Of a stretch of DNA of 64,000 bases, positions 11,306 through 33,856 are shown one piece after another. This stretch comes from Betaproteobacteria bacterium Ga0077527. Lineage in GTDB: Bacteria; Pseudomonadota; Gammaproteobacteria; Burkholderiales; SG8-41. The DNA lies in assembly GCA_001464815.1 (NCBI GenBank), contig LNDW01000021.1:8920-72919 (forward strand), read 5' to 3'. Within the stretch, counting starts at the first letter, position 1, and each line of letters starts with the position of its first letter. Under the pieces are notes generated by a model. That model was not told the DNA's origin. It worked only from the letters and a program-made list of their open reading frames with translations, and did no database searches. The position numbers and the translations under genes were made by a program.

Positions 11306-11320
11306 CGGTTTTTCTGGCAT

Positions 11321-11356
11321 AAACAACAAGGGGCGCCGCGGCGCCCCTTGTTGTTT
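11321..11356. terminator. Bidirectional terminator hairpin between the convergent genes fccB and the DUF2784 gene
   Basis: 17-bp perfect inverted repeat aaacaacaaggggcgcc/ggcgccccttgttgttt. Confidence 0.7.
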
Positions 11357-11744
11357 ATGTCCTTGGCTTTCCATCCATCCTGCGCGGCGGCACCCGCCAC
11401 CAGGTCACCGCCACCAGTGCAGCAAAGGCGAGGTAGGCCGCCGTGAACACCCACAGCGGCAGATCGTAAAAAAGCAGTGCATGGACCCAGCGTGCGACAA
11501 AACTGCGCTCGGCCACGCCGCCGCGCAGCGCATCCTCGAGCAGGGTCAGCGGACACCACACACCTGCGAGTGCCTCGGCGCTGACAAAGAGGATGGCGAA
11601 CAGATGCAGCGCACGAAATCCGAAATGGCGCACCCAGCGCCAGTTGGCCGCGGCACCGAGCCAGATCAGCGGCAGGCTGCCGGTGATGAACAGCGCGACG
11701 CCAAAATGCACAACGAGGACGAGATCGGCGAGGAGCAGATTCAT
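11355..11744 (-). CDS. DUF2784-like small membrane protein
   Basis: 129 aa with 4 predicted TM helices (MNLLLADLVLVVHFGVALFITGSLPLIWLG…). Confidence 0.6.
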   Translation of the reverse strand: MNLLLADLVLVVHFGVALFITGSLPLIWLGAAANWRWVRHFGFRALHLFAILFVSAEALAGVWCPLTLLEDALRGGVAERSFVARWVHALLFYDLPLWVFTAAYLAFAALVAVTWWRVPPRRMDGKPRT

Positions 11745-11789
11745 TGCGCAGACCCGGGGAGCTGACCCGGGGTCCCGCTCCCTGGCGGA

Positions 11790-12641
11790 TCAGGCGGCCC
11801 CGGTGGCTACCGGACGCCGGCGGTCGCTGACCCATTCGCTCCATGAGCCGGGATAGAGGCGAGAGCCGCCGAGCCCGGCAACCTCCATCGCCAGCAGGTT
11901 GTGGCAGGCGGTGACACCGGAGCCGCATTGATGGATCACCGACTGGGGTGCAGCGCCGTTGATCGTCGCCTCGAACTCTTTTTTGAGCGCGTCCTGCTGT
12001 TTGAAGCAGCCGTCCTCATCGAGGTTGGATTTGAAAAAACGGTTCGTCGCCCCCGGGATGTGCCCGGCCACCGGATCCAGGGTTTCGTTTTCGCCGCGGA
12101 AACGGTCGGCCGCGCGGGCGTCGATGATCTTCGACTGCGCATCCTTCAGTTGTGCCAGCACCTGGCTGCTGTCGACCGACAGCTGGAGCTGCGGTTTGCC
12201 GGCGAACATCGCCGACGGAAACTGCGGCTGCTCGACGGTGTACGGCAGCTTGGCGCGGTTCCATGCAGCCCAGCCGCCGTCGAGCACGGCGACGTTCTGG
12301 TGGCCCAGCCAGCGCATCATCCACCACAGGCGCGCAGCGAAAGGCCCGCCACTGTCGTCATAGGCCACCACCTGCTTGCTGTTGTCGATGCCGAGTGCGC
12401 CAAGGCGCAGGCAGAAGGTGGCCGGATGTGGCAGCGGATGGCGGCCGTTGAGTCCGGTCTTCGGGCCCGAGAGGTCGACGTCGAGGTGCAGGAAGCGCGC
12501 ACCGGGAATGTGGCCGCTGCGATAGGCGCGGTATCCCGCGCTGTAGTCGGCCAGGTCGTGGCGGCAGTCGCAGAACACCCAGGACGGGTCGCGGAGGTGT
12601 TCGGCGGCATCGGTGGCGTTGATCAGTGTGGTGAAAGGCAT
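11790..12641 (-). CDS. sseA: Thiosulfate/3-mercaptopyruvate sulfurtransferase (tandem rhodanese)
   Basis: Start MPFTTLINA…; two rhodanese domains; active-site loop HQCGSGVTAC; …SGHIPGA… motifs. Confidence 0.85.
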   Translation of the reverse strand: MPFTTLINATDAAEHLRDPSWVFCDCRHDLADYSAGYRAYRSGHIPGARFLHLDVDLSGPKTGLNGRHPLPHPATFCLRLGALGIDNSKQVVAYDDSGGPFAARLWWMMRWLGHQNVAVLDGGWAAWNRAKLPYTVEQPQFPSAMFAGKPQLQLSVDSSQVLAQLKDAQSKIIDARAADRFRGENETLDPVAGHIPGATNRFFKSNLDEDGCFKQQDALKKEFEATINGAAPQSVIHQCGSGVTACHNLLAMEVAGLGGSRLYPGSWSEWVSDRRRPVATGAA

Positions 12642-12795
12642 TGCGGCGTCAGGAAAATCCGGAGCTGGGTTTGCGGGAGCGGCAAAGGTAGCAAACGCCG
12701 AACGAAAATCAAGCGCTGAAAACAGCACCGGCAGCCTGACCAATCGATCAATGCTGCCGGTCCGGCATCAGGACAGCCAGGACAAATATTTGTTT

Positions 12796-13923
12796 TTATT
12801 GATTATTTTCAATCTTTGAAGACAGGTGCGGGGCAACTTCACGGCGCAGGAACTGGTGGAAGTGCACCATGCCGTCCTCATAGGGAGTCTGGTACGGGCC
12901 AGCTTCGCTGCGTCCCTGCTTCCACAGCGCGCGGCGGCCCTCTGTCATACGCGCGATGATCTCGGCATCTTCGATCGCGGTTTCGCGGTACGCCGCCTGC
13001 TCGGCCTCGACGAACTCGCGCTCGAACAGCGCGATGTCCTCGGGGTAGTAGAACTCGACCACGTTGCTGCAGGCCTCGGGGCCGCGCGGCACGATGGTGC
13101 TGACCACCAGCACATGCGGATACCACTCGACCGTGATGTTTGGGAAATAGGTCAGCCAGATCGCGCCGTGCGCGGGCTGTTTTCCTTCGTTGTAACGCAG
13201 CAGCTGTTCGTGCCAGCGCTGGTAGACCGGACTGCCCGGACGTGCCAGCCGGTTGGCGACACCGCAGGTCTGCACGCTGTACCAGTCGCCGAATTCCCAG
13301 CGCAGGTCGTTGACGTTGACGAAGCGGCCGAGGCCCGGATGGAAGGGCTCTACGTGGTAGTCCTCGAGGTAGACCTCGATGAAGGTTTTCCAGTTGCAGG
13401 CGTATTCCTCGATCTCGACGCGGTCGAGCATGTAGCCGCTGAAGTCGAGGTTCTTCATCACGCCGAGCGCGGCAAGGTCGCGTGCGATGTCGCGGCGGCC
13501 GGCAAACAGCAGGCCGTTCCAGCGTTGCAGCGGTGTACGCGCGAGGTCGAGGCAGGGTGTTTCCGGAAAATGCGGCGCACCGAGCAGCTTGCCGTCGAGG
13601 CCGTAGGTCCAGCGGTGCAGCGGGCAGATGATGTTCTGCGTGTTGCCGCGATCCTTGAGGATGATCGCCTGGCGGTGGCGGCAGATGTTCGAGATCAGCT
13701 CGACGCCGTTGCTGTTGCGCACCAGAGCCTGCGAGTTGTCGAGCCAGGAGATCGCGTGATAGTCGCCGTTGTTCGGCACCATCAGTTCGTGGCCGACGTA
13801 GCCGGGGCCGCGGTCGAACAGCAGTTGCAGCTCAAGCGCGTGGATCTTCGGATCGAAGTACCAGTGGACCGGGAGTTGCGTTCCCGAGTGAATGAGTGCG
13901 GAAACGCTGGAAAGATCGGACAT
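12796..13923 (-). CDS. Rieske [2Fe-2S] non-haem-iron oxygenase, alpha-subunit-like
   Basis: 375 aa. Rieske ligands CRHRQ…(17)…CPLHRW, with a C-terminal catalytic domain and conserved His/Asp region (EDYHVEPFHPG). Confidence 0.8.
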   Translation of the reverse strand: MSDLSSVSALIHSGTQLPVHWYFDPKIHALELQLLFDRGPGYVGHELMVPNNGDYHAISWLDNSQALVRNSNGVELISNICRHRQAIILKDRGNTQNIICPLHRWTYGLDGKLLGAPHFPETPCLDLARTPLQRWNGLLFAGRRDIARDLAALGVMKNLDFSGYMLDRVEIEEYACNWKTFIEVYLEDYHVEPFHPGLGRFVNVNDLRWEFGDWYSVQTCGVANRLARPGSPVYQRWHEQLLRYNEGKQPAHGAIWLTYFPNITVEWYPHVLVVSTIVPRGPEACSNVVEFYYPEDIALFEREFVEAEQAAYRETAIEDAEIIARMTEGRRALWKQGRSEAGPYQTPYEDGMVHFHQFLRREVAPHLSSKIENNQ

Positions 13924-14131: not shown

Positions 14132-14794
14132 TTATCCCTCGCTTGTTGCGAATGAGCCATCGCCGCCGAGCAGGCCGCTCGCCTGCAGGCGCAGCCAGTC
14201 CTGCGGGCGGTCGATGTCCCACAGCGTTTCGAGTTCCTGCCAGCGCAGGCCGCAGTCGCGCAGGCGTGCGCGGGTTTGCGCGAGCACCTGATCGCCGCCC
14301 CAGCTGATGCTGCCGAACAGCCGCGGCTCATCACACGAGAGTCCGATCAGCACATAACCGCCATCCTCTGCCGGGAGCAGCACTGCATCGTTGCCAGCCT
14401 CCAGCTGCTTCGCAGCCGCAAGCAGATGCGCCGCGGTCAATGCCGGGCAATCGCTGCCGATGCACAACACGCGTGGTGCATCCTCCAGCGCCGAAGCAAA
14501 GGCGTGGGCGAGCCGGGCACCGAGATCTGCACCTTGCTGCACATGCAGGCTGGCGCTACAACGTGCCGCCGCGGCGATCAACTGCGGATGTGTTGCATCC
14601 GGTGCGCACCACAGTTGCAGCCGCGTTGGAGCCGCGGCGGCCGCGGTGTCGAGGGCATGGTTGAGCAGGCGCAGTTGCGCCGCTGCCGCACCTTCGGCAC
14701 CGAGCAGCGGTATCAGCCTGGTCTTGCTGGCGCCGGGCAGCGGTGCCCTGGCGAAGATCACCAGCGTGAAATCGCCGTGTTCAGCGGCGCGCAT
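14132..14794 (-). CDS. DUF2064/CofC-like transferase (rSAM/selenodomain-associated transferase 1 type)
   Basis: 220 aa. N-terminal VIFARAPLPGASKTRL nucleotidyl-transferase-like motif. Overlaps the upstream GT2 gene by 14 nt. Family assignment is from memory of TIGR04282 and from gene context. Confidence 0.7.
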   Translation of the reverse strand: MRAAEHGDFTLVIFARAPLPGASKTRLIPLLGAEGAAAAQLRLLNHALDTAAAAAPTRLQLWCAPDATHPQLIAAAARCSASLHVQQGADLGARLAHAFASALEDAPRVLCIGSDCPALTAAHLLAAAKQLEAGNDAVLLPAEDGGYVLIGLSCDEPRLFGSISWGGDQVLAQTRARLRDCGLRWQELETLWDIDRPQDWLRLQASGLLGGDGSFATSEG

Positions 14795-15461
14795 AACGTT
14801 GTGCCAGCAGCGCGGGGTCGGCGCCGCGCCAGTAGGCGTAACGCAGCTGCCACATCAGCATGATGGTGCGCCACAGGCCGTGGCGCTCCCAGCGCCGGCC
14901 GGAGGTGATGGCGCGATGGCTCAGGCACAGCGGCGCGCCATAGTGCTTGAGCTGCCGGCACAGCGCGATGTCCTCCATCAGCGGGATGTCGGCGAAGCGG
15001 CCTGCCGCCTCGAACAGGGAGCGGGTGACAAAGATCGCCTGATCGCCGGTGGCGATGCCGCTGAGCCGCGAGCGCCAGTTCATCATCACGGCGACCATGC
15101 CCAGCAGCGGATGACTGCCGCTGATCTGCACATCAAAACGGCCCCAGCTGCGGCGGCTGCGCGCCAGCCCGTCGCGGATCAGGCCGTCGGCACCTTCGGG
15201 CAGGCGGGTGTCGGCGTGAAGGAAGCACAGGATTTCCTTGCCGGACACCGCGGCGCCGGCATTCATCTGTCGGGCACGGCCGGCATCGGCAGGCAGCACT
15301 TTGTCGGCGAGCGGCCTGGCCAGCACCACCGTATCGTCACTGCTGCCGCCGTCGACGACGATGACCTCGCAGCCGCGCGCGCGTAATGGCGCGAGGGCTT
15401 CAAGCGCGGCGGTAATGCCTTCGGCCTCGTTCAGCGTCGGGACGATGAGGGACAGCGGCAT
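14781..15461 (-). CDS. Family-2 glycosyltransferase (rSAM/selenodomain-associated transferase 2 type)
   Basis: 226 aa with LIVPTLNEA…VIVVDGGSSDDT…, the GT-A DxD-type fold. Context matches TIGR04283-type genes. Confidence 0.75.
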   Translation of the reverse strand: MPLSLIVPTLNEAEGITAALEALAPLRARGCEVIVVDGGSSDDTVVLARPLADKVLPADAGRARQMNAGAAVSGKEILCFLHADTRLPEGADGLIRDGLARSRRSWGRFDVQISGSHPLLGMVAVMMNWRSRLSGIATGDQAIFVTRSLFEAAGRFADIPLMEDIALCRQLKHYGAPLCLSHRAITSGRRWERHGLWRTIMLMWQLRYAYWRGADPALLAQRYARR

Positions 15462-15467
15462 GCGGGA

Positions 15468-16298
15468 TCATTTTTTGATGTCATTCAGTGTCCAATCATA
15501 GTCGAGATGGCGCAGTGCGGCCTTGCCCGCGCGCAGGATGTTCTGCTGTTCGGCATTATCGGTAAGCAGGTTCGCGTAACGCCCGAACCACTGCTCGCGC
15601 GAGGTGACCGCGGGTGTCTTGCCGTCGAAACCGCGATAGCCACTCGTCCAGTCGACGCTGAACCACTTGAAGATTTCCGAGACTTCGAGGGTGTTGTCCT
15701 GTGCGTTGTAACGGTTGCGGCTGCGGTCCGACAGGAAGCGCCGGGTCTGTTCCTCGAGCTGGGCATCCAGGCGCGTGGCGACATAGGGCTCCTCGCGCAG
15801 CATCGGGCAGCCGACCGAGGCACAGTTCACCGCGAAGTGTACGCGCGGCTCGTCGTAGGCGCCCGGCTTGCGCAGCGTGTCGTGCTCGATGCCATCGAGA
15901 GAGAACTCGCGGCCGAACAGCGTGAAAAAACGGTCCTTGAACGGGTTGCCGAAGACCTTGCCGAAATCCCAGATCGACTTGATGTTCGGATGACGGGTCA
16001 GTATTTTTTCAATGGTGTAGGCGTTGTAGGCATTGATCAGGAAGGCCATCTGCTGCGGTTTGCTCCAGCCGTTGAACTCGGCCTGGCTGACCTTGGACAG
16101 CGTGGCGAGGTAGGCCCTGAGTTCAGCGCGGTCCTGGCTGAAGCCGGCGTAGCGGACCTGCGAGGATTTGCCGCCGTCGATAAGGACGACGTGTTTTTTG
16201 AGCAGGGCGGACCAGGCTTTGTGGTCGTGGTCGAAGGATTGGGCCAGGCCACCCGCCGGAAAAAACAGTATCAGTAGAGCTAATCCCAAGATTTTCAT
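15468..16298 (-). CDS. DUF547 domain protein (secreted)
   Basis: Signal peptide MKILGLALLILFFPAGGLAQ. …FLINAYNAYT…HFAVNCASVGCP… is the characteristic DUF547 core. Confidence 0.8.
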   Translation of the reverse strand: MKILGLALLILFFPAGGLAQSFDHDHKAWSALLKKHVVLIDGGKSSQVRYAGFSQDRAELRAYLATLSKVSQAEFNGWSKPQQMAFLINAYNAYTIEKILTRHPNIKSIWDFGKVFGNPFKDRFFTLFGREFSLDGIEHDTLRKPGAYDEPRVHFAVNCASVGCPMLREEPYVATRLDAQLEEQTRRFLSDRSRNRYNAQDNTLEVSEIFKWFSVDWTSGYRGFDGKTPAVTSREQWFGRYANLLTDNAEQQNILRAGKAALRHLDYDWTLNDIKK

Positions 16299-16319
16299 GA
16301 TTCTTTCCTTTGAAAGGCT

Positions 16320-16460
16320 TGTTGGCCGGGCGTAGCCCGGCGGCTAGTTACTTTCTCTTGCTTCGCCAAGAGAAAGTAACCAAAGAGAAGGCAACTCTGG
16401 CTCGCCGGTCCTTCGGACTCCCCTGCGCTGCTCAGCGGCTTACAAGGGGTTTAAATTCAA
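16320..16460. repeat. REP-like intergenic repeat element
   Basis: Hairpins gccggg-cgta-cccggc and a 14-bp stem gttactttctcttg/caagagaaagtaac (16347-16380). The sequence resembles a widespread proteobacterial intergenic repeat that yields spurious ORFs (…QEKVTKEKATL…). Confidence 0.6.
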
Positions 16461-16475
16461 AACCGGTGGCGCGAC

Positions 16476-18620
16476 TCATCCTCTTTGCCATGCGTGGAAT
16501 TTTTCCACCCATTCCAGCAATCGTTTCGGCGCATGCGCGCGCTTCCAGTTCCCCGCCACATATTTGTTCGCTTCCGCCAGCGTCGGGTAGATGTGGATGG
16601 TGCCAAGGATCTTGTTGAGGCCGATGCCGTGTTTCATGGCGCTGACAAATTCGGTAATCAGGTCGCCGGCGTGTTCGCCGGCGATGGTGGCGCCGAGGAT
16701 TTTGTCGCTGCCGGGCACGGTGAGTATTTTCACCAGGCCGTGGGCGTTGCCGTCGGCGATGGCGCGGTCGAGGTCGTCGATGCCGTAGGTGGTGATTTCG
16801 TGCGGGATGTTCTTTTCGCGGGCTTCAGTTTCGTTGAGGCCGACGCGCGCAACCTCGGGATCGGTGAAGGTGGCCCAGGGAATCACTGAAAAATCGGCGC
16901 GGAACTTCTTGAAGCCGCCGAACAGGCCGTTGACCGCCGCGTACCATGCGGTGTGCGCCGCGGTGTGGGTGAACTGGTATGGACCGGCAACATCACCGCA
17001 GGCGAGGATGTTGGGGTATTTGGTCTGCATGAACTCGTTGACTTCGACGGTGCGTGCCCTGGTCACCGGGATGCCGAGTTCCTCGAGGCCGTAGCCAGTG
17101 GTGTTGGCGATGCGGCCCACCGCGCAGAGCACGGCGTCGAAAGCGATGCGCAGCGCACCGCCAGCGTGGTCGCAGTAAAGCACCTTCTCACCATTTTCAA
17201 CGGCAAAGCGCTGCGCCTTGTGGCCGGTAAGCACGGTGATACCTTCGCTGCGGAATTTTTCCTCGACCATCGCCGAGATTTCAGGGTCTTCGCGCACCAT
17301 GACCCGCGGCAGCATCTCGACCTGGGTGACCTGTGCGCCGAGGCGTGCGAAGCACTGCGTCAATTCGCAGCCGATCGGGCCGCCGCCGAGCACCACCAGC
17401 CGCTTCGGCAGTGTGCGCAGGTCCCATACCGTGTCCGAGGTCAGCACGCCGACTTCGTCGATGCCGGGAATCGGCGGCACAAAGGGCCGCGCGCCGGTGG
17501 CAATGACAATGCCGCGCGTAGTCAGCGTTTTAGTCAGGCTCTGTTTGCCGGTGGCCGTGGTGATTTCAACAGACCATGGCGAAGTGATTTTGGCCTCGCC
17601 GCTGATGCACTCGACACCCAGCTGGCTGTAGCGCTCGACCGAGTCATGTGGCTCGATGTCGCGGATCACGCGCTGCACGCGTTCCATCACTTCGGCGAAA
17701 TCGAAGTCGACCTGCGTATCCTTCAGGCCGTAATGGCTGGCCTGCTTCATTGTCGCCACCAGTTTCGCCGACTTGATCAGCGCCTTCGATGGCACGCAGC
17801 CGGTGTTCAGGCAGTCGCCGCCCATCTTGTGCCGCTCGATCAGCGTCACCTTCGCCTTCACCGCGGCGGCAATGTAGGAGGACACCAGGCCGGCCGAGCC
17901 GGCGCCGATCACCACCAGGTTGCGGTCAAAGCGCGCCGGCCGGGTCCAGCCGGCGTAGACCTTGCGCGCCTTCAGCACATCCAGCACTTTTTTTGCGATC
18001 AGCGGAAACAGGCCTAGCAGCACAAAGGCGCCTATCAGTCCGGCACCGATCTTGAATGCGCCGAGCTGGGTGCCGGCATAGACATACACCGCGGTGCCGG
18101 CGAGCATGCCGAGCTGGCTCACCCAATAATAGGTCCAGGTGCGGATCGGGGTCAGCCCCATCAGCAGGTTGATCACAAAAAACGGAAACACCGGCACCAG
18201 CCGCAGGGCGAACAGGTAGAACGCCCCCTCCCGCGCCACGCCGTCATTGATCGATTTGAGTTTTTCGCCAAACCGGCCCTGCACCCAGTCACGCAGCAGA
18301 AAACGCGATGCAACAAAGGCGAGCGTGGCGCCGATGGTTGACGCAAACGACACGATCACCAGGCCCCAGAGCAGCCCGAAGATCGCGCCGGCGACCAGCG
18401 TCAGAATCGCGGCACCCGGCAGCGACAGCCCGGTGACGGCGACATAGATCGCGAAGAACAGCAGCGCCGCGCGCAGCGGATGCGCGGCGACCCCGGCCTC
18501 GATCGTGGCGCGCTGGGTCTGGAAATATTCCAGGGAAATGAAGCGCTGCAGATCGAGCGCGAAGAAGGTGATCACCGCGGTGACCACGATGATTCCCAGT
18601 AACATCTTGTTTTTATTCAT
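16476..18620 (-). CDS. TVP38/TMEM64 (DedA-like) membrane domain fused to a class-I FAD-dependent pyridine nucleotide-disulfide oxidoreductase
   Basis: Start MNKNKMLLGIIV…. The N-terminal ~230 aa are multi-TM. Then VVIGAGSAGLVSS, redox-active GGDCLNTGCVPSK, and a dimerisation domain. The track ORF extends 48 codons upstream without support. Confidence 0.85.
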   Translation of the reverse strand: MNKNKMLLGIIVVTAVITFFALDLQRFISLEYFQTQRATIEAGVAAHPLRAALLFFAIYVAVTGLSLPGAAILTLVAGAIFGLLWGLVIVSFASTIGATLAFVASRFLLRDWVQGRFGEKLKSINDGVAREGAFYLFALRLVPVFPFFVINLLMGLTPIRTWTYYWVSQLGMLAGTAVYVYAGTQLGAFKIGAGLIGAFVLLGLFPLIAKKVLDVLKARKVYAGWTRPARFDRNLVVIGAGSAGLVSSYIAAAVKAKVTLIERHKMGGDCLNTGCVPSKALIKSAKLVATMKQASHYGLKDTQVDFDFAEVMERVQRVIRDIEPHDSVERYSQLGVECISGEAKITSPWSVEITTATGKQSLTKTLTTRGIVIATGARPFVPPIPGIDEVGVLTSDTVWDLRTLPKRLVVLGGGPIGCELTQCFARLGAQVTQVEMLPRVMVREDPEISAMVEEKFRSEGITVLTGHKAQRFAVENGEKVLYCDHAGGALRIAFDAVLCAVGRIANTTGYGLEELGIPVTRARTVEVNEFMQTKYPNILACGDVAGPYQFTHTAAHTAWYAAVNGLFGGFKKFRADFSVIPWATFTDPEVARVGLNETEAREKNIPHEITTYGIDDLDRAIADGNAHGLVKILTVPGSDKILGATIAGEHAGDLITEFVSAMKHGIGLNKILGTIHIYPTLAEANKYVAGNWKRAHAPKRLLEWVEKFHAWQRG

Positions 18621-19615
18621 TATTTTTCCTGTGAGGCTTGGAGTGTTCGCAGCAGCATGCCGTTCACCGTGACGCCAGCGCCCATCGCGCGGTTCAGGCC
18701 GTAGCGCGGACCGTTGCGGATGCGCGCGCCATACGACAGTTCGGCGTCGCTGCCGGCCGGCCACTGCGTATCGAATTCTGTCTGCCAGGCAGCGCGGTCG
18801 TAGTGCAGCGGCAGTGCATCGACATGGATGCCGTCAATCACCGTGCCGTACAGCGCAGGCAGTGATGTCGCGGTGGTGGCGATGCGGGTGATCACGCCGA
18901 AGCCGGTGCCGGCGAAATTGGGCATGCCGGCGGCGCCGTTGTTGAACAGCGCGCAGTCGCGGCCATCGGCGCTGAAGCGCAGCGCAATCGGAAGACAGGT
19001 GTGGCTGCTGGCGATCACACGCGCGCGCGCGGCCACGCAGTGCGCGGCGAGGCGGCTGATGCCGGCGGCATCACGCAGCGCAGATTCGTCATAACTCCAG
19101 CCGGCCAGTGATTCGCAGTCGCCGTGCACGATGGCCACGCGCAGGCCGCCGACCTCGGCGACCAGCGTCATCGGCAGCGCGCCCAGCTTTTGGCGCAGCA
19201 CGCTCATGTCACTTGCCGTGCCGCGCAGCCGCGCGAGTATGGCGTTGGAGCGGCCGACTTCCGCCGCGCCAACTGATTCGGGATAACCGCAACCGCAACC
19301 CGCGGCATCATCGTCGCCGGCGAGTTCGGTTTCAACATTGCCGCGCAGCGCGTGGTGGCGCAATACACCGTCGTTGATGTCGACAAAGGCGCCGGCATCG
19401 ATGTTGAACCAGTTGAAGTCGCCGTTGAAGGCAAGGGTGGCGGGCGATGCTTCTTCGGCGGCCATGGTTTCGACGGCGCGCAGCGCAGGGCGGTTGCCGT
19501 AGAGGCCGCCGATCACATACAGCGTGTCGCTGACGATCTCCGGCGCGCGTGCGAGCGAAGTCGCCGCATAGCGGTAATGCAGCGGGCAGCTGCGACCGGG
19601 CTCATGGCTGTTCAT
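18620..19615 (-). CDS. Metallophosphoesterase-fold protein with degenerate metal-ligand motifs
   Basis: 331 aa with YVIGGLYGN / FNGDFN / RGNVE / IVHGD / SSHTC in the order of calcineurin-like motifs I-V, but with several ligand substitutions. TAATG junction with the downstream gene and ATGA junction with the upstream gene. Confidence 0.55.
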   Translation of the reverse strand: MNSHEPGRSCPLHYRYAATSLARAPEIVSDTLYVIGGLYGNRPALRAVETMAAEEASPATLAFNGDFNWFNIDAGAFVDINDGVLRHHALRGNVETELAGDDDAAGCGCGYPESVGAAEVGRSNAILARLRGTASDMSVLRQKLGALPMTLVAEVGGLRVAIVHGDCESLAGWSYDESALRDAAGISRLAAHCVAARARVIASSHTCLPIALRFSADGRDCALFNNGAAGMPNFAGTGFGVITRIATTATSLPALYGTVIDGIHVDALPLHYDRAAWQTEFDTQWPAGSDAELSYGARIRNGPRYGLNRAMGAGVTVNGMLLRTLQASQEK

Positions 19616-20997
19616 CGCGGGCCGCGCAGCCGCTGTAGCGCCAGCGGCAGCAGGAAGCCGGCGATGCAGATCAGCAGGCCGTAAAGATTGGTGCCAAGCA
19701 GCAGCGCGTATTTGCCGTCCCCGATCGCCCAGCTTTGCGGAATCTGTCCCGCGGCGAGCAACACACCGAGGATCACGCCGGGCCAGAAGGCGAGGTGGAA
19801 GCTCGATGGCGAATGTTTCACCAGCGGCGCCAGCAGGAAAATGGGTGCGAGGCCCATCACCATGGTGCCGCTGACCGTGGTGGCCTTGAGGATGTCAGTG
19901 CCGGCGATCATCGGCAGGTTGCCGAGCAGCGCGAAGGCGCACATGGTCCACATCCCAATGAGCATCGCCCGCGGGCCGGGTTTGCGGCCGGCCAGCATTG
20001 GCAGTTCCTGACCGATGGATTTCGCCACCGAGGAGAAAGTTGAATCGAGCGTGGAGCCCGCGGCCATGATCATCACCACCGTCATCAGCAGGTAGGGCAG
20101 CACGCCAAAGGCGCCGGCAACCGCGCCCGGCATGTTGTCACCGGCGGGCAGTCCTTCGAGCCTGGCATGTACGCCAACAAGGCTGAAGGCGAAGATGCAT
20201 GCAAAGCCCAGCACGCCGGCGGTGATCATCGCGCGCAGCATGGTTTTTTCGCGGGTGATGAATCCGCGGTCGGTCAGTACTGGATCGTGGAAGGGATAGG
20301 ACAGCACCTGCAGCAGCGCCACCAGGATCAGGTCGACGCCGGCGTTGAGGCGGAAGTCGCCGTCGGTGAGCAGTGTGCCGAGGCCGTGCTGCGGCAATAC
20401 CAGGAACAGCACCACGCCGAGGACCACCACGAACAGCACCGCCTGGATGACGTCAGTGAAGATCGAGCTGCGCAGCCCGCCCTTCAAGCTGTAGAACAGG
20501 GTGGCCGCGGTGAACAGCAGCGCCGAACCGATGAAAGTCCATTCCCCGGCCTTGCCGTAATAGGCGCCGACCACGGCGGTGTTGCTCCATACCTCGTTGT
20601 AGAGCCGGATCAGGATTGCCAGCGTGAAGGCCAGCGCGGCAAGCCGGCCGTAGCGCTGGATCAGGAAAGACACCATGCCGGTCGCGCCGTGTCGGGTGCG
20701 CAGCCAGTAGATGACCAGCCCTGCGACCGGAATCGACAGCCAGTAAGTGGCGTAAGCCAACCCGCCGACGACGCCCCAGGCCGCGCCGAGGTTTGCGGCG
20801 TTGGTCACCGACTTGGCGAAAATCCAGCTGATGAAGATGCTGCACATCAGCGCCCATTCGGTTGCGGGGCGCCCGGCATCGTCACTGCCGGTAAAAAAAC
20901 TGGCCTCGCTGCGCGCGTTGGGCGAGATCGCATACATCACCCCGCCGTAGAGCAGCAGGAAGCCCCAGAAGTAGATGGCGAAGGCCGGTTCGATCAT
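19612..20997 (-). CDS. Sodium:solute symporter (SSS) family transporter
   Basis: Start MIEPAFAIYFWGFLLLYGG…; ~12-13 TM helices; ATGA overlap with arsS. The track ORF is extended 74 codons upstream into arsS. Confidence 0.75.
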   Translation of the reverse strand: MIEPAFAIYFWGFLLLYGGVMYAISPNARSEASFFTGSDDAGRPATEWALMCSIFISWIFAKSVTNAANLGAAWGVVGGLAYATYWLSIPVAGLVIYWLRTRHGATGMVSFLIQRYGRLAALAFTLAILIRLYNEVWSNTAVVGAYYGKAGEWTFIGSALLFTAATLFYSLKGGLRSSIFTDVIQAVLFVVVLGVVLFLVLPQHGLGTLLTDGDFRLNAGVDLILVALLQVLSYPFHDPVLTDRGFITREKTMLRAMITAGVLGFACIFAFSLVGVHARLEGLPAGDNMPGAVAGAFGVLPYLLMTVVMIMAAGSTLDSTFSSVAKSIGQELPMLAGRKPGPRAMLIGMWTMCAFALLGNLPMIAGTDILKATTVSGTMVMGLAPIFLLAPLVKHSPSSFHLAFWPGVILGVLLAAGQIPQSWAIGDGKYALLLGTNLYGLLICIAGFLLPLALQRLRGPR

Positions 20998-21965
20998 GAT
21001 TCGTGCCCCAGCGCGCCGCCGCAGCTCGAGCCCTGGCCGGCGGTGCAGCCATAACAATGGTCCTTGACGACGATCGGATTGCCGTCGAGATCGGCGCCGA
21101 TCAGCTCGCGCAAATGCGTGCCTGGCCTGCCCTTCCACTCCAGGGGCAGGCCGAGCATCTGGTTGAAGTCGCAGTCGTACACGTAGCCCTGCCAGTCCAC
21201 CGACAGCAGCGAGCGGCACATCACGGTATCCAGGTTTTCGGGACGATAGGCGCTTTTGAGCAACTGCATATAGGGATCGAACTGGCCTTTGCTGACCAGC
21301 GTGCTGCCAAAGCGCTGGATCGGCATGTTGGCCAGCACATAGAGCTGGTTGAAGACGATGCCGTGGGCTGCACCGAGGCGCTGCTTGTAGTCCTGCTCGA
21401 GTTTTTGCTGGGCGGGCGGCAGCACCGGGCCCTGCGGGTTGTAGACCAGGTTGAGCACCAGCCCGGAGCCGGGTTTGCCGTAGCCGAGTGCGTTGAGGGT
21501 TTGCAGCGCGCGGATGCTGGCCTTGAACACGCCGTCGCCACGCTGGCGGTCAACGTTGTCTTCAAGGTAACAGGGCAGCGAGGCGGTGATCTCGACCTGC
21601 TGGGCGGCGAGGAATCCGGCGAGCCCTTCCTGTCCGGGCTCAAAAAGGATGGTCAGGTTGCAGCGGTCGATCACGCGCACGCCCAGCCGCCGCGCCGATT
21701 GGACCAGCAGGCGGAAATGCGGATTGAGTTCCGGCGCGCCGCCGGTGAGGTCGAGGGTTTTGATGGCCGCGGCCTTGAGAAAGGCAACGACTTCAAAAAT
21801 GGTGTCGCGCGCCATCAGCTCGGTGCGCGTGGGGCCGGCGTTGACGTGGCAGTGCAGGCAGCTCTGGTTGCATTTGTAGCCGAGGTTGGCCTGCAGCGTG
21901 TCCGGCGCGCGGCGGCGTAGCGCCGGAAAGTCACTTTGTTCAAGCAGGGGCAGCGTCGCGCGCAT
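20994..21965 (-). CDS. arsS: ArsS-type radical SAM / Cys-rich (selenodomain-type) protein
   Basis: 323 aa. CNQSCLHC radical-SAM cluster motif. C-terminal CYGCTAGQGSSCGG, which is the Cys version of the Sec-containing tail I recall for this family (TIGR04167). Confidence 0.8.
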   Translation of the reverse strand: MRATLPLLEQSDFPALRRRAPDTLQANLGYKCNQSCLHCHVNAGPTRTELMARDTIFEVVAFLKAAAIKTLDLTGGAPELNPHFRLLVQSARRLGVRVIDRCNLTILFEPGQEGLAGFLAAQQVEITASLPCYLEDNVDRQRGDGVFKASIRALQTLNALGYGKPGSGLVLNLVYNPQGPVLPPAQQKLEQDYKQRLGAAHGIVFNQLYVLANMPIQRFGSTLVSKGQFDPYMQLLKSAYRPENLDTVMCRSLLSVDWQGYVYDCDFNQMLGLPLEWKGRPGTHLRELIGADLDGNPIVVKDHCYGCTAGQGSSCGGALGHES

Positions 21966-22286
21966 CAGTCGGGTCTCCGGGATGGCCTGTGGTATCGCTG
22001 GCCGGGAACTGGGTATTCAAATAAATAAGTCAGTCGAGTATGCCGCGCCAACCTTACAACGCTGGCGGGCTCGTTGGTGTATACCGATGATATTTCATAA
22101 GTAATTGATTTTGTTTATTTATTTTTGATGCTGATCGTGGCTTCGAGTCATGACTTGTCAGTCGTGCCGGCATCGCTGGCGCAGTGCCGCGGATTGCGCA
22201 AAACCGTTCGCCGGATTCAACCACACGCTGTTATGGAATGAGCAGTCTATAATGAAAAAAAACCGGTTCCGCCACGAGGAGACGAG

Positions 22287-22733
22287 ATGAAACCGTTCTG
22301 GATGCTGTTGCCGCTGCTGTCGATGCTGGCTGGACCTGTCAATGCCACCGACGGCATGATTGCCCTGAAAAGCCCGCACAACGTGAAGACCACGCTGGAC
22401 CGCTTCGAAGCCGCGGCGAAGGAGCGCGGGCTCAATGTGTTCTTGCGCGTTGACCACGCCGCCGGCGCGCTGAAGGTCGGCAAGACCCTGCGACCGACCG
22501 AGCTGCTGGTCTTCGGCAACCCCCAGGGCGGAACGCCGCTGATGGAATGCGCGCAGGGTGCCGGCATCGATCTGCCGCTGAAGGCGCTGGCCTGGCAGGA
22601 CGCGGCCGGACAGGTCTGGCTCGGGTACAACGATCCGGCTTATCTCGCGAAGCGTCACGCCGCCGCGGATTGTGCCGTGGTGCCCAGCCTGCAAAAGGCG
22701 CTGGCCGGCCTGGCCCAAGAGGCCGTGCGCTGA
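22287..22733 (+). CDS. DUF302 domain protein (periplasmic)
   Basis: 148 aa. Signal peptide MKPFWMLLPLLSMLAGPVNA. …LLVFGNPQGGTPLM…DLPLKALAWQD… is the DUF302 core. Confidence 0.8.
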   Translation: MKPFWMLLPLLSMLAGPVNATDGMIALKSPHNVKTTLDRFEAAAKERGLNVFLRVDHAAGALKVGKTLRPTELLVFGNPQGGTPLMECAQGAGIDLPLKALAWQDAAGQVWLGYNDPAYLAKRHAAADCAVVPSLQKALAGLAQEAVR

Positions 22734-23314
22734 TGGCACGGCCGCGTGAATTTGACGCTGATGCGGCACTTGGCAGCGCAATGCAGGCGTTCTGGGCCCG
22801 TGGTTACAGGGCGACCTCAATCGACGATCTGTGCGCGGCCACCGGGCTGAGCCGTTCCAGCCTGTACGCGGCCTACGGCGGCAAGCGCGCGCTGCTGCAC
22901 CTCGCGCTGGAGCGTTACGAGCAGGATGCGCTCAGGCGCATCCGCGCCGTGCTGGCGCAGCCGCTGCCGGTGCGCGAGGCCATCGCCGCGTTCATCGACG
23001 GCCAGATCGAGCGTATCGTCGCCGGCCCCGGGCGTGCCGGCTGCTTCATCGGCAACTGCGCCGCGGAATTGTCCGGCGACCGCGCCACCGCGGCGCGGGT
23101 GCGGCGCAGCCTTGCCAGCATCGAGGCGGCGTTCAGCGAGGGCCTCGCCCGTGCGCGGGTGAATGGCGAGATCGCCGCCGACGCGGACATCGCATCACTG
23201 GCACGGTTTCTGGTGTCCGGTATCCAGGGGCTGCGGCTGGTGGGCAAGGCCAATCCCGACCGTGTAGTGCTGGGCGACATTGCCTCTGTAATGCTGCGCT
23301 GTCTCGACCGCTGA
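22733..23314 (+). CDS. TetR/AcrR family transcriptional regulator
   Basis: Start MARPREFDADAAL…; HTH …GYRATSIDDLCAATGLSRSSLYAAYGGKRAL; TGATG overlap with the DUF302 gene. Confidence 0.88.
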   Translation: MARPREFDADAALGSAMQAFWARGYRATSIDDLCAATGLSRSSLYAAYGGKRALLHLALERYEQDALRRIRAVLAQPLPVREAIAAFIDGQIERIVAGPGRAGCFIGNCAAELSGDRATAARVRRSLASIEAAFSEGLARARVNGEIAADADIASLARFLVSGIQGLRLVGKANPDRVVLGDIASVMLRCLDR

Positions 23315-23347: not shown

Positions 23348-23959
23348 ATGCAAAACCGAAAACCCGATCCGCGGCTCGCACCGTTGCCGCAGGAAACCAC
23401 GCCTGAGCTCGCCGGCGCTTTTCAGACCTATGTGCGCGTGCTTGGTTTTGTGCCGAACAGCGTGCTGATCATGCAGCGCAAGCCGAAGCTGGTGCAGGCC
23501 CTGTCACAACTCGCCGCCGCGACCTGGGATCCGCAGAGCGAGGTGCCGATCGCGTTCAAGCGCATGCTCGCCCATGTCGCGAGCCGCGCCCACGGCTGCC
23601 ATTACTGAATGGCGCACACGGCCGGGGCGGCGCTCGGGCTGGGTTATGACGATAAAAAGCTGGAAGCGGTATGGGAGTTCCGCAGTAATCCGTTGTTCAC
23701 GGACGCGGAGCGCGCGGCGCTGGAAGTGGCCATCGCGGCGGCGGCGCAGCCAAACGCGGTGACCGACGAGATGTTCGCTGAACTGAAAAAGCACTGGAGC
23801 GAAGGCCAGATTGTCGAGATCGTCGGCGTGGTTTCGATGTTCGGCTTCATGAACCGCTGGAACGACACGATGGCGACGCCACTGGAGGAGGAGCCGGTCC
23901 ACGTCGGCGAGAAGCATCTCGCAAAAAGCGGTTGGAACGTGGGCAAGCACCAGCGTTGA
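23348..23959 (+). CDS. AhpD/carboxymuconolactone-decarboxylase-like peroxidase-related protein, candidate selenoprotein (in-frame TGA at 23606-23608)
   Basis: AGGAGG RBS 5 nt before ATG 23348. ORFs 23330..23608 and 23609..23959 are contiguous in one frame. Read-through gives …ASRAHGCHY-U-MAHTAG…, which puts the TGA at the second Cys of the AhpD-type CxxC motif. Confidence 0.6.
23620..23640 (+). promoter_or_regulatory. Possible SECIS-like hairpin (weak) for TGA 23606
   Basis: Begins 11 nt after the TGA. GGCCGGG/CUCGG(G)CU forms a ~7-bp stem with one bulge and G:U pairs, loop GCGGCG. Imperfect. Confidence 0.3.
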
Positions 23960-23980: not shown

Positions 23981-25198
23981 ATGGCCCGATTGTCTGATTT
24001 TTCGGAAGCTGAAAAAAAACACCACCTCGACAAGATCCTCGATTTTCCGGATTTCGGCGAGACGCCCATTGCGGAAGGTCCGGCGCTGGCGCAGCGCCGG
24101 GTGGCGATTATCACCACCGCCGGCCTGCATCTGCGTAATGACCGGCCGTTTGACGGCGGCGCCGCCGATTACCGGGTGATTCCCGGCGATGCGCCGGCCG
24201 CGGACCTGGTGATGAGCCATGTCTCGGTGAACTTCGACCGCACCGGTTTCCAGGAAGACCTCAATGTGGTGTTTCCGCTGGACCGCCTGCGCGAGCTGGC
24301 GGACGAAGGCATGGTTGGCGCCGTGGCTGACATCCATTACTCGTTCATGGGGGCGACGCAGATGCGCGCGCTGGAGGCCAAGGCGCGTGAACTGGCCGGG
24401 CTGCTGAAAAAAGACCGTGTCGATGCGGTGCTGCTCAGTCCGGTCTGACCGAACTGCACGTGCGCCGTGGGCGCACTCGGTCATTACCTGGAACGCGAAG
24501 GCATTCCCACCGCGCAGATCAGCCTGATCCGCGAACAAACCGCGGCGATTCGGCCGCCACGCGCGCTGTGGGTGCCGTTCATGCTGGGCCGCCCCTTTGG
24601 CGTGCCGGGTGATGCCGCTTTCCAGCGCCGCGTGCTGGTGGCGCTGTTGTCGCTGTTCGAACGCAAAGCGGGTCCGCTGCTCGAGGATTACGCTGAAGAC
24701 GCGCCCGCGGAATCGCTGGACGCCGGCGGCTTTGCCTGCCCGGTGAGTTTTGCCGGCAGTGCCGCGGCGGATCGCGGGCTGGCCGAAGCGCTGAGGGATG
24801 AGGTGAGGCAGCTCGCGTCGTGGCACGGACTGGCTTTGCGCCGGCGTGGCCGCAGTACGGTCGGCGTGTTCGGCCCCACGGTGGATGCCGCCGTGGAGCA
24901 TGTGGTTTCATTTCTTGATCAGCATCCGCAGACGCCGCCGGTTGAGGGCATGACCGCTGGCACCGCGATCAAACGCGCCTGCGACGATCTCAGGGCCTAT
25001 TACTTCGAGGCGGCCGCGGCGCAGCCGGGAAATCTGTCTTCGGCGGCAATCGATCGCTGGTTCTGGAGCGACACCGCCGCTGCGCGAGCGTTGTTTGCGA
25101 TTCGCGATATCTGCCTGGGCAGCAGCGATCCTTCGCTCAGGCCGCTGGGCAAGCTCAGCCTGATTCCGCGAGCGGTGGCGGAGGGCCGGCCACGCTAA
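23981..25198 (+). CDS. Glycine/sarcosine/betaine/D-proline reductase selenoprotein-B (GrdB/PrdB) family homologue, candidate selenoprotein (in-frame TGA at 24446-24448)
   Basis: ORFs 23975..24448 and 24467..25198 share a frame. Read-through gives …VDAVLLSPV-U-PNCTCAVGALGHYLEREGIPTAQISLI…, which parallels the GrdB motif …TST-U-GTCTRCGA…ERAGIP… as I recall it. Confidence 0.72.
24460..24476 (+). promoter_or_regulatory. SECIS-like stem-loop for TGA 24446
   Basis: 17-nt hairpin GUGCGC-CGUGG-GCGCAC (perfect 6-bp stem, GU in the loop) starting exactly 11 nt after the UGA. This is the geometry of the minimal E. coli fdhF SECIS. Confidence 0.6.
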
Positions 25199-32512: not shown

Positions 32513-33856
32513 TCAGGTCAGTAAAGTCCACGCGGCGCCTACAACGGCACACACCCCGATCACCGGCATGATGCCCACCTTGTAGCGCCACAGCGCGACA
32601 AAGGCGGCGATGCCGATCACCGCCGAAGGCCAGTCGAAGCGGCCCTGCAGGCCTTCGGGCCACAGCACGTGGTAGGCGAAAAACACTGCAAGGTTGAGAA
32701 TCACGCCGACCACGGCGGCGGTGATGCCGGTGAGCGGGGCGGTGAATTTGAGTTCGCCGTGGGTGGTCTCGACCAGAGGGCCGCCGAGCAGGATGAAAAT
32801 GAAGCTGGGCAGGAAGGTGAACCAGGTCACCACCGCGGCGGCGAGCGCGCCGGCCGCGACCAGCCGGTCAGTACCGAGGAATTCGGTGGTCCAGCCGCCG
32901 ACGAAACCGACGAAGGCCACCACCATGATCAGCGGGCCCGGCGTGGTTTCGCCCAGCGCGAGGCCGTCGATCATCTGGTGGGGCGTCACCCACTGGAAGT
33001 GCTCCACCGCGGCCTGGTAGACATAGGGCAGCACGGCGTAGGCGCCGCCGAAGGTAAGCAACGCAGCTTTGGTGAAAAACCAGCCCATCTGGCGCAGCGT
33101 GCTGTCCCAGCCGAAGCTGGCGACGATGATCGCCATGCCCGTGGCCCACAGCGCGAGGCCGAAGGCAAGCACGCGGTAGAAGCGGCCCCAGGAGAAACGC
33201 GCATGTTCGGGCGTCGGCGTGTCGTCGTCGATCACCGCCGGGCCGTAGTCCTTGTCCGCCGCGCCATGTCCGCCGCCCATCTCGAACAGCTTCGGCCGCA
33301 GCCGGCCGCCGATCCAGCCGGCAATGCCGGCGCCGATGACGATCAGCGGGAACGGCAAATCCAGCGCGAACAGGCCGATGAAGGCTGCCGCGGCAAAACC
33401 CCACAACACGCCGTTTTTCAGCGCGCGTGAACCGATGCGGATGGCGGCAAAGACCACGATGGCGGTCACCGCGGGCTTGATGCCGTAGAGGATGCCGGCG
33501 ATGGCGGGCACGTCGCCCCAGGCCATGTAGATCCACGTCAGCGCGATCAGGATGAACAGCGAGGGCAGCACAAACAGCCCGCCGGCGACGATGCCGCCCC
33601 AGGTGCGGTGCATCAGCCAGCCGATGTAGGTGGCCAGTTGCTGCGCCTCGGGGCCGGGCAGCACCATGCAGTAGTTGAGCGCATGCAGAAAGCGGCGCTC
33701 GGAGATCCAGCGCCTTTTCTCCACCAGCTCCTGGTGCATGATCGAAATCTGCCCCGCAGGGCCGCCGAAGCTGATGAAGCCGAGTTTGAGCCAGAAGCGG
33801 AAGGCTTCGGCGAAGGAGATGCTGCGTGTTTCGCCTTCCGGTGCGGCTGCGCTCAT
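32513..33856 (-). CDS. chrA: Chromate efflux transporter ChrA
   Basis: 447 aa. …FRFWLKLGFISFGGPAGQISIMHQELVEKRRWISERRFLHALNYCMVLPGPEA… and a duplicated CHR domain. Confidence 0.9.
   Translation of the reverse strand: MSAAAPEGETRSISFAEAFRFWLKLGFISFGGPAGQISIMHQELVEKRRWISERRFLHALNYCMVLPGPEAQQLATYIGWLMHRTWGGIVAGGLFVLPSLFILIALTWIYMAWGDVPAIAGILYGIKPAVTAIVVFAAIRIGSRALKNGVLWGFAAAAFIGLFALDLPFPLIVIGAGIAGWIGGRLRPKLFEMGGGHGAADKDYGPAVIDDDTPTPEHARFSWGRFYRVLAFGLALWATGMAIIVASFGWDSTLRQMGWFFTKAALLTFGGAYAVLPYVYQAAVEHFQWVTPHQMIDGLALGETTPGPLIMVVAFVGFVGGWTTEFLGTDRLVAAGALAAAVVTWFTFLPSFIFILLGGPLVETTHGELKFTAPLTGITAAVVGVILNLAVFFAYHVLWPEGLQGRFDWPSAVIGIAAFVALWRYKVGIMPVIGVCAVVGAAWTLLT

Follow-up and report, generated by a model that had tools for sequence, protein, structure and literature searches.

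Among the major arsenic species of aquatic food webs are arsenosugars and arsenolipids, of whose biosynthesis, to our knowledge and in the literature searched, the first two enzymes, ArsM and ArsS, are the only ones characterized. The genetics of cyanobacterial arsM-arsS was reportedly described by Xue et al. in 2019 and Cheng et al. in 2021, and the latter are also reported to have found active ArsS homologues in several phyla. This paper describes a cluster of seven genes around an arsS homologue in Betaproteobacteria bacterium Ga0077527, within 64,000 nucleotides (nt) of contig LNDW01000021.1; this whole stretch is called the window, and all coordinates are window positions. ArsS, a radical S-adenosylmethionine (SAM) protein, adenosylates the trivalent dimethylarsenical DMAs(III) to 5'-deoxy-5'-dimethylarsinoyl-adenosine (DDMAA) in a redox-neutral radical reaction (PMC13598754). 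The PDB contains no ArsS structure.

The families TIGR04167 (ArsS), TIGR04283 and TIGR04282 form the core of a gene neighbourhood that was named 'rSAM/selenodomain-associated' in TIGRFAMs/NCBIfam and is now called 'arsenosugar biosynthesis', in which the 'glycosyltransferase' names of the transferase pair are context-based. All three families are present in the cluster in the usual order, each above its cut-off, and close homologues are publicly so named, in agreement with the labels given in an earlier note on this DNA that was made without database searches. Judged from its sequence, the cluster is an instance of this already annotated ArsS/TIGR04282/TIGR04283 neighbourhood; what is new is a distinct variant, found widely, that has a transporter and a Cys-rich 331-residue protein, here called MPE331, in the place of ArsM. 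This exchange points to a possible second way by which arsenic may enter the ArsS pathway. The curated set has no model for MPE331, for the transporter, or for an AhpD-like selenoprotein encoded nearby, and its ArsM model (NF038099) has no counterpart in the window.

With the arsM-arsS system of Synechocystis sp. PCC 6803 the locus shares an ArsS-family protein with a CxxxCxxC motif and a Cys-rich DUF3641 domain, for which DMAs(III) adenosylation is predicted here as well. It differs from that system in lacking an adjacent or fused arsM, in its host, a non-phototrophic betaproteobacterium from drinking-water and activated-carbon metagenomes, and in the addition of the transporter, MPE331, a VTT-flavoprotein and a DUF547 protein, none of which is given a role in the work on cyanobacteria.

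Gene order, ArsS and the absence of arsM

All seven open reading frames (ORFs) were found on the minus strand at 14132-21965, where the earlier note had placed them, and three independent metagenome contigs, one from drinking-water treatment (557,939 bp) and the others from activated carbon, have publicly called genes whose products are identical to those of the window. From arsS onwards the cluster reads:

20994-21965, minus strand: arsS, radical SAM protein with DUF3641 C-terminal domain, 323 amino acids (aa) (TIGR04167, Pfam, motifs)
19612-20997, minus strand: polytopic membrane transporter, distantly like the sodium:solute symporters (SSS), 461 aa (weak TIGR00813, SSF and SGLT1 matches)
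18620-19615, minus strand: MPE331, Cys-rich protein with a degenerate metallophosphoesterase fold, 331 aa (AlphaFold model and Foldseek)
16476-18620, minus strand: VTT/DedA (TVP38) domain fused to a class I pyridine-nucleotide disulfide oxidoreductase, 714 aa (Pfam)
16299-16475, minus strand: structured intergenic gap (folding energy against shuffles, hairpins)
15468-16298, minus strand: DUF547 protein, 276 aa (Pfam DUF547)
14781-15461, minus strand: GT2-type (GT-A fold) transferase, TIGR04283 (NCBIfam score)
14132-14794, minus strand: DUF2064/TIGR04282 protein with a CofC- or MobA-like nucleotide-diphospho-sugar transferase fold (NCBIfam, PDB 3cgx)

The arsS stop and the transporter start share the ATGA at 20994-20997, the transporter stop and the MPE331 start share that at 19612-19615, the MPE331 and VTT-flavoprotein genes overlap by 1 nt in a TAATG at 18620, and 14 nt (14781-14794) are common to the GT2 and DUF2064 genes, exactly as had been read before. 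The wider claim that all seven genes are translationally coupled was overstated, because a 177-nt gap (16299-16475) between genes 4 and 5 (VTT-flavoprotein, DUF547) divides the set; the arrangement is 4 + 3, with a spacing of 6 nt from DUF547 to GT2.

The ArsS protein scores 455.6 bits against TIGR04167, whose equivalog cut-off is 300, and spans positions 2-303 of the 303 of the model, while Pfam recognizes Radical_SAM and DUF3641 (186.9 bits). The radical SAM motif CxxxCxxC reads C-N-Q-S-C-L-H-C, and the cysteines C32/C36/C39, C250, C265, C304 and C307 are present, conservation of the motif and of the C-terminal cysteines having been assessed in a 48-sequence alignment. Both that motif and the C-terminal CTAGQGSSCGG, which is the Cys form of the family's Cys/selenocysteine (Sec) motif GSS[C/U], stand in the translation as the earlier note had them, and score, motif, DUF3641 and cysteines together place the protein in the ArsS family. 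The GT2 protein (TIGR04283, 269.7 bits against a cut-off of 182) and the DUF2064 protein (TIGR04282, 197.1 against 134), encoded in the same gene run as arsS, belong to the named transferase pair, with a predicted catalytic role. None of the three scores thus falls below its cut-off, the outcome that had been named beforehand as telling against the assignment.

An ArsM-like sequence was not found in the window by tblastn with seven ArsM-family queries (four subtypes) at E <= 10, SAM-methyltransferase motif I is absent from every frame of the window, and the 5.3 kb beyond the window start hold no arsM. The adjacent or fused arsM of the cyanobacterial type is therefore missing from the window and from these 5.3 kb at one end, so that the absence reported earlier stands and does not give way just outside the window start. 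Pfam-annotated gene calls and tblastn gave no ars genes in the window either, the remaining genes of which are, by the same calls, housekeeping or sulfur-, selenium- and chromate-related.

For comparison with relatives, a diverse ArsS alignment yielded 80 proteobacterial genome loci (63-82% ArsS identity) and an MPE331 alignment yielded 80 metagenome loci (individual loci are cited by L numbers), on all of which the window proteins and recurrent neighbours were mapped by tblastn and de novo ORF clustering. All loci are from related Proteobacteria and their counts are not phylogenetically independent; presence or absence of arsM refers to the fetched flanks. Among the 80 genome loci, GT2 was found in 56, DUF2064 in 50, the VTT-flavoprotein in 40, MPE331 in 20, an ArsM-family gene in 15, DUF3047 and a TIGR03169-type oxidoreductase in 14 each, DUF547 in 12, an ECF (extracytoplasmic function) sigma factor in 11, an MTA-phosphorylase-type (MTAP) gene in 9, and the SSS-like transporter in 7; in the two sets, DUF547 occurs in 12/80 and 18/80 loci and TIGR03169 in 14/80 and 16/80. 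The order ArsS-(MPE331)-VTT_FAD-(DUF547)-GT2-DUF2064 recurs in Beta-, Gamma-, Alpha- and Zetaproteobacteria and in soil metagenomes, the gap from VTT_FAD to GT2 is below 60 nt in 27 loci, and many loci have GT2 and DUF2064 directly after ArsS without intervening genes. In its nine genome loci (L019, L022, L025, L053, L058, L062, L064, L071 and L082) the MTAP-type gene immediately precedes ArsS, at a distance of about 30-200 nt, and its product scores 320 bits with TIGR01694, whose cut-off is 274.85; the window has no MTAP gene.

The ArsS family is strongly tied to arsenic, because ArsM-family genes adjoin ArsS in 15 of the 80 genome loci, directly beside it, and because independent ArsS-ArsM fusions exist. 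For some of the adjacent genes the score attains the NF038099 ('arsenosugar biosynthesis ArsM') or the NF008823 cut-off, and the fusions, in both domain orders, make up five of the ten long ArsS fusion representatives scanned (50%-identity clusters). The state without arsM in cis is the majority one (65/80 genome loci), and since so many relatives share it, the missing arsM does not by itself reopen the question of the element. The earlier note had left arsenic, selenium and sulfur open, which is supported in part: the product and most steps after ArsS are still predictions, whereas the arsenic link of the family is stronger than the note allowed and absence of arsM is common. Other ArsS fusions include one with a CMD domain (P0199), and the long N-terminal extensions of the homologues P0126 (residues 1-428) and P0135 (residues 1-220), which match no Pfam family and have no counterpart in the window or the fetched loci, may be further fusion partners.

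MPE331 as a positional alternative to ArsM

The distinguishing feature of the locus is MPE331, which is a positional alternative to ArsM. In the genome set, ArsM accompanies MPE331 in none of 20 MPE331-positive loci and occurs in 15 of 60 MPE331-negative ones (Fisher p = 0.017), and none of the 80 MPE331-anchored metagenome loci (725 kb in total) has ArsM, which gives 0/100 for MPE331-positive loci overall. MPE331-type and ArsM-type loci interleave in a neighbour-joining tree of ArsS, and L006, inside the ArsS clade of the window, reads ArsS-ArsM-VTT_FAD-GT2-DUF2064, with ArsM exactly where the window has the transporter and MPE331. ArsS lies just upstream of MPE331 in 35 of the 38 MPE331-anchored loci with enough flank. 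Two MPE331-ArsS fusions (P0168 and P0206) were each found on two contigs with a domain order opposite to the gene order, and are therefore unlikely to be read-through artefacts. The MPE331 family is large (6,431 clusters at E <= 1e-3), without a model in Pfam or NCBIfam, alternating with ArsM, and fused to ArsS; of the 120 top-ranking clusters listed, none comes with a precomputed Pfam domain, and the majority bear a hypothetical label.

No Pfam or NCBIfam family matches MPE331 at E <= 1e-3, and no PDB sequence does. Its AlphaFold (AF2) model, built from a 40-sequence alignment (pLDDT 89.2, pTM 0.90), has the beta-sandwich metallophosphoesterase fold: in a Foldseek search against the PDB the top 50 matches are all metallophosphoesterases (best E = 1.2e-9), with 1nnw, 3qfm and 3rqz at E ~1e-9 as best matches and LpxH also among them. 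The predicted structure bears out the 'degenerate metallophosphoesterase' of the earlier note. Proteins of the YfcE/SapH/PF1218608 type (3qfm, 1nnw, 3rqz) are the closest described relatives, with TM-scores of 0.50-0.58 (query) and 0.66-0.74 (target) at E ~1e-9, and MPE331 shares motifs II to IV with them, along with the first His of motif V. It differs from them in its low identity of about 16% without a Pfam Metallophos match, in the replacement of the Asp-x-His of motif I by G-G-L-Y-G-N and of the last His by Cys, and in a floppy G-C-G-C-x-Y-P insert loop and a C-terminal extension of about 60 aa.

A 102-sequence alignment, which includes fusion domains of 36-38% identity, has invariant GGxYGN, NGD, GNVExE, GCGCxYP, HGD and HTC, with C10, C107 and C109 invariant and C207 present in 100 of the 102 sequences. 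The Asp and His of motif I are lost to GGLYGN, motif III reads GNVE, and the last His is Cys207, so that the retained ligands D66, N93, H164 and H205 make up one metal site and the complete binuclear set (DxH, GDxxDR, GNH[DE], H, GHxH) is absent, in a pattern that is invariant across the 102 sequences. The CGC pair lies within a low-confidence loop of the model. A role of MPE331 as substitute for the adenine-removing step was considered and ruled out by its co-occurrence with MTAP in L019, L058 and L082.

The companion of MPE331 is the transporter, which the earlier note had called an SSS transporter. A distant likeness stands (SGLT1, E = 2e-4, residues 14-205), whereas the scores stay below the cut-offs of TIGR00813 (32 bits against 184) and Pfam SSF (18.6 against 22.8); the protein looks like a distant relative of the sodium:solute symporters (TC 2.A.21), with weak membership. 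The SSS-like transporter adjoins MPE331 in 20 of its 21 occurrences. Three loci have MPE331 without ArsS, always directly after an importer, which is SSS-like in L092 (6371-8814) and L162 (6437-8601) and an ABC importer of the phosphonate-binding-protein type in L111 (4962-8494).

A proposed arsenic supply and its alternatives

Our favoured reading, for and against which we see the chances as about equal, is that the locus encodes a proteobacterial ArsS-centred 'arsenosugar-type' arsenoriboside pathway, to which the trivalent arsenical is supplied by the importer and MPE331. As known for the family, ArsS would use the 5'-deoxyadenosyl radical from SAM to adenosylate the trivalent dimethylarsenical to 5'-deoxy-5'-dimethylarsinoyl-adenosine. 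Gene context suggests that adenine is then removed, the MTAP-type phosphorylase of relatives being the obvious candidate, which would leave arsenoribose-1-phosphate, and that the DUF2064 protein and the GT2 transferase activate the arsenoribosyl unit and pass it to an acceptor. A membrane or envelope acceptor would be in keeping with the VTT/DedA domain and the export of the DUF547 protein, so that the likeliest product would be a membrane or envelope arsenoriboside; the VTT-flavoprotein disulfide reductase, DUF547 and the AhpD-like CxxU protein may contribute a step at the membrane and thiol/selenol redox chemistry driven by NAD(P)H. In the variant seen here the trivalent arsenical would come not from a neighbouring ArsM, whose slot the importer and the Cys-rich MPE331 may fill. 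The two together would take up a pre-methylated pentavalent arsenical oxyanion, for instance dimethylarsinate, bind and reduce it, and hand it to ArsS, with the disulfide reductase and the AhpD-like relay driving the reduction.

Gene 4 was confirmed as the TVP38-FAD disulfide reductase fusion that had been proposed for it: Pfam finds VTT_dom, Pyr_redox_2, Pyr_redox and Pyr_redox_dim, and the translation has the redox motif GGDCLNTGC and HIYPTLAE. It misses the cut-offs of the MerA model TIGR02053 (363.8 bits against 454.45) and of the LpdA equivalog; with a C-terminus (...KFHAWQRG) that has no Cys pair and a VTT membrane domain, not NmerA, at its N-terminus it is not MerA, and by sequence the flavoprotein, with its CLNTGC, ranks as a class I disulfide oxidoreductase of generic type. 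The DUF547 protein (Pfam DUF547, 94 bits) begins with a signal-peptide-like segment in its translation, MKILGLALLILFFPAGGLAQ, has a Cys pair in NCASVGCP, and has no solved relative in a PDB sequence search. The DUF2064 protein matches PDB 3cgx, a 'putative nucleotide-diphospho-sugar transferase' (E = 3e-18).

Two described systems offer analogies for the proposed reduction. Phosphatase folds have given rise to both known families of arsenate reductases, ArsC and Acr2, the enzymes of which use cysteines. Like ArsC (LMW-PTPase type) and Acr2 (Cdc25-rhodanese type), MPE331 combines a phosphoesterase scaffold and reduced phosphatase features with essential cysteines, and an arsenic gene context and a thiol-reductase partner are found in both cases; its calcineurin-like metallophosphoesterase fold, however, has no sequence relationship to either, and membership is not claimed. 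With the AhpD-Lpd thiol relay the locus shares the co-occurrence, beside ArsS, of an AhpD/CMD-like CxxC/CxxU protein and a lipoamide-dehydrogenase/MerA-like flavoprotein, and the ArsS-CMD fusion exists; it differs in that the window has no peroxiredoxin partner, the flavoprotein is fused to DedA/VTT, and the AhpD-like protein uses selenocysteine.

A more specific proposal, that the importer and MPE331 are an unrecognized salvage module which imports dimethylarsinate or methylarsonate and delivers DMAs(III) directly to ArsS via the four cysteines on a remodelled metallophosphoesterase scaffold, the electrons coming from the VTT-flavoprotein/AhpD-like relay, is put forward tentatively and is, in our judgement, unlikely to hold as it stands. 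If true, MPE331 would mark the third time that a phosphatase fold was independently recruited for reducing arsenic(V), and would be a candidate bacterial methylarsenate/dimethylarsinate reductase, of which none is known to us. Non-methylating bacteria would then build complex organoarsenicals from the methylarsenic of other organisms. Organoarsenical synthesis would be uncoupled from arsenic methylation if the MPE331 family feeds ArsS from imported methylarsenic, and would extend to chemolithotrophic and heterotrophic Proteobacteria of soils and drinking-water biofilters; the latter are the habitat of the organism, with a possible bearing on arsenic speciation in treated water. The locus and its approximately 160 relatives moreover present a recurrent gene set with candidates for the missing arsenosugar steps: the MTAP-type phosphorylase, the DUF2064/GT2 pair, the VTT-flavoprotein, DUF547 and the AhpD-like Cys/Sec protein.

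Several points weigh against this supply route. All steps after ArsS are drawn from gene context. The absence of arsM covers, of a 558-kb contig, the 64-kb window and the 5.3 kb next to one of its ends; the gene may be present elsewhere in the genome, in which case MPE331 need not replace ArsM. The mutual exclusion of MPE331 and ArsM comes from Proteobacteria only (63-82% ArsS identity), in counts that are not phylogenetically independent. We know of no arsenic reductase with a metallophosphoesterase fold, and the four conserved cysteines of MPE331 could equally be Zn or Fe-S ligands. The substrate assigned to the transporter is hypothetical and its SSS membership weak, the VTT-FAD reductase is present in ArsM-type loci too and so is not specific to salvage, and the MTAP gene of relatives has no counterpart in the window. 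Finally, the sequencing runs that contain the locus are of DNA only, so that co-transcription across the 177-nt gap is hypothetical.

The same ArsS pathway could instead draw its DMAs(III) from an ArsM encoded in trans, with MPE331 as a post-ArsS scaffold or as a hydrolase of an adenosyl or phosphorylated intermediate, and with the transporter moving acceptor or product; we regard this as possible, if on the unlikely side. Supply in trans must be common, given that 65 of 80 ArsS loci have no arsM nearby, and structurally MPE331 comes closest to pyrophosphatases and phosphodiesterases of nucleotides (SapH Ap4A hydrolase, LpxH). The ArsS product is a 5'-substituted adenosine, MPE331 keeps one intact metal site (D66/N93/H164/H205), and its co-occurrence with MTAP in three loci (L019, L058 and L082) is consistent with a post-ArsS role that does not replace the MTAP step. 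A standard binuclear hydrolase is nevertheless disfavoured, since the second metal site is lost and invariant cysteines have been gained, and an ArsM in trans leaves unexplained why MPE331 and ArsM occupy the same slot and are together in 0/100 loci, and why MPE331 pairs with an importer even without ArsS (L092, L111, L162). That the ArsS homologue adenosylates a selenium or sulfur nucleophile, the cluster making an organoselenium or organosulfur riboside, seems improbable. The ArsS family was first noticed for its Cys/Sec C-terminal motif, AhpD-like CxxU and GrdB-like selenoproteins are encoded nearby here and in relatives, selA/selB lie some 20-22 kb from the cluster on the same contig, and the 'N-terminal to SelD' oxidoreductase TIGR03169 occurs in 14/80 and 16/80 loci; a rhodanese is encoded downstream of the cluster, and the window has no ars genes. 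Yet the selenoproteins testify to Sec as a catalytic residue and not to selenium as a metabolite, and biosynthetic genes specific to selenium or sulfur, such as selD, senB and egtB, are not conserved beside ArsS in 160 loci. The only methyltransferases recurrently adjacent or fused to ArsS belong to the arsenite methyltransferase family, and ArsS scores far above the TIGR04167 equivalog cut-off in a family whose biochemistry concerns DMAs(III) (PMC13598754). No positive evidence was obtained for a selenium or a sulfur product, and the equal footing that the earlier note gave to them is not upheld.

A chance or locally syntenic juxtaposition of two unrelated operons, arsS-transporter-MPE331-reductase and DUF547-GT2-DUF2064, would account for the 177-nt structured gap and the weak promoter-like matches between genes 4 and 5, and for the presence of DUF547 in only 12/80 loci. 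This explanation is very improbable, and at the level of sequence it is already contradicted by neighbourhood conservation: GT2 and DUF2064 directly follow ArsS in many loci without the intermediate genes, the full gene order recurs in soil metagenomes as well as in Beta-, Gamma-, Alpha- and Zetaproteobacteria, and VTT_FAD and GT2 are less than 60 nt apart in 27 loci.

Intergenic gap, flanking genes and selenoproteins

The gap at 16299-16475 folds with a minimum free energy of -70.9 kcal/mol against -55.0 kcal/mol for shuffles (z = -3.8) and contains a perfect hairpin of 17 bp (16346-16381) along with a second GC hairpin; a T-run terminator is absent. The arms of the 17-bp hairpin have no second copy in the window, and so it is not a REP-like repeat. 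In relatives a gap at the VTT-flavoprotein/DUF547 position is common and its sequence is not conserved. The hairpin, unrepeated in the window and unconserved in relatives, was dropped as a defined regulatory element; the gap hairpins may be an RNA processing or stability element, or the scar of a mobile insertion.

To judge from neighbouring sequence, the conserved unit exceeds 14132-21965 on both sides, and its flanks contain the following features:

11355-13923, minus strand: co-directional downstream genes and terminator (Pfam, NCBIfam, gene calls)
22033-22056, minus strand: TAAGG-N15-CGAC, candidate ECF-type promoter, 91 nt upstream of arsS (motif scan, alignment)
22287-23314, plus strand: start of a divergent operon, DUF302 (22287-22733) and a TetR-family regulator (22733-23314) (gene calls, Pfam)
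23348-23959, plus strand: AhpD/CMD-like selenoprotein, 203 aa, in-frame UGA at 23606-23608 (translation, homologues, TIGR01926)
23981-25198, plus strand: GrdB/PrdB-like putative selenoprotein, 405 aa, in-frame UGA at 24446-24448 in V-U-P-N-C-T-C (translation, PrdB model)

Downstream, the Rieske oxygenase at 12796-13923 on the minus strand, which had been noted before, was confirmed by Pfam and NCBIfam. It is followed on the same strand by a two-domain rhodanese (ORF 11790-12743, which public calls start later, for a product of 283 aa) and a DUF2784 gene (11355-11744), and the trio also follows DUF2064 in eight loci (L005, L008, L087-L091 and L098). Whether Rieske, rhodanese and DUF2784 belong to the same pathway is uncertain. 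A strong bidirectional terminator with a 20-bp stem (11316-11361) lies between DUF2784 and the convergent sulfide dehydrogenase genes; its sub-threshold Rfam match to sraL (24.7 bits against a gathering score of 39) is the sole match at 10-27 kb, where no riboswitch or known RNA was found.

The TIGR03169 oxidoreductase (373 aa, 337 bits, above cut-off), a family that is fused N-terminally to SelD in some species, recurs at the ends of ArsS clusters, often after DUF3047 (L052, L053, L058, L099, L103, L105 and about 24 more, after DUF2064/DUF3047). The window has neither this oxidoreductase nor DUF3047.

Of 127 loci, 14 have TAAGG-N15/16-CGAC at 52-138 nt upstream of ArsS, and only 2 have it there on the reverse complement. 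The window's copy aligns among close relatives, and the motif is also present in L005, L007, L010, L016, L087-L089 and others; ECF sigma genes lie upstream of ArsS in 11 of the 80 genome loci. A repeat search gave no short palindromic operator in the interval between arsS and the divergent operon. The DUF302/TetR pair also stands beside an ArsS/SSS/MPE331 context in L087, L090, L092 and L107. The best NCBIfam match of the DUF302 protein is 'fluoride efflux transporter CrcB' (positions 141-246 of 270, 121 bits against 312), a model that apparently contains a fused DUF302 part and thereby carries a risk of misannotation.

The AhpD-like gene was called as two ORFs (86 + 116 aa), with the UGA in C-H-Y-U-M-A-H. 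At 11 loci the homologues have Cys (TGC/TGT, CxYCMAH) in a single ORF of about 202 aa, and at three they have TGA; this alignment of the UGA with Cys, together with the Sec machinery on the contig, identifies a selenoprotein. Its TIGR01926 score is 65.6 bits, its SECIS (selenocysteine insertion sequence) hairpin is not statistically distinctive (z = 0.43), and in about 12 soil loci the gene lies directly upstream of ArsS in the same orientation, often as the first gene of the ArsS operon. The GrdB/PrdB-like gene is probably a second selenoprotein gene: the PrdB model TIGR04483 gives 101.6 bits, below its cut-off, a stable hairpin begins at the UGA (z = -1.75), and the TGA is also found in L087, the one other comparable locus. 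The same contig carries selA and the beginning of selB (L004 19439-21377), about 3-5 kb before window position 1 and about 20-22 kb from the cluster. The organism has selenocysteine insertion machinery, and its ArsS nevertheless carries Cys in GSS[C/U]GG.

Elsewhere in the window, evidence for the 'sulfur oxidiser' of the earlier note consists only of a flavocytochrome c sulfide dehydrogenase pair at approximately 9.6-11.3 kb, rhodaneses, and a sulfite-reductase-type gene. At 32513-34276 on the minus strand a small rhodanese comes before a 447-aa chromate transporter of the ChrA family, and ChrA, rhodanese and sulfide dehydrogenase fit an oxyanion- and sulfur-handling lifestyle.

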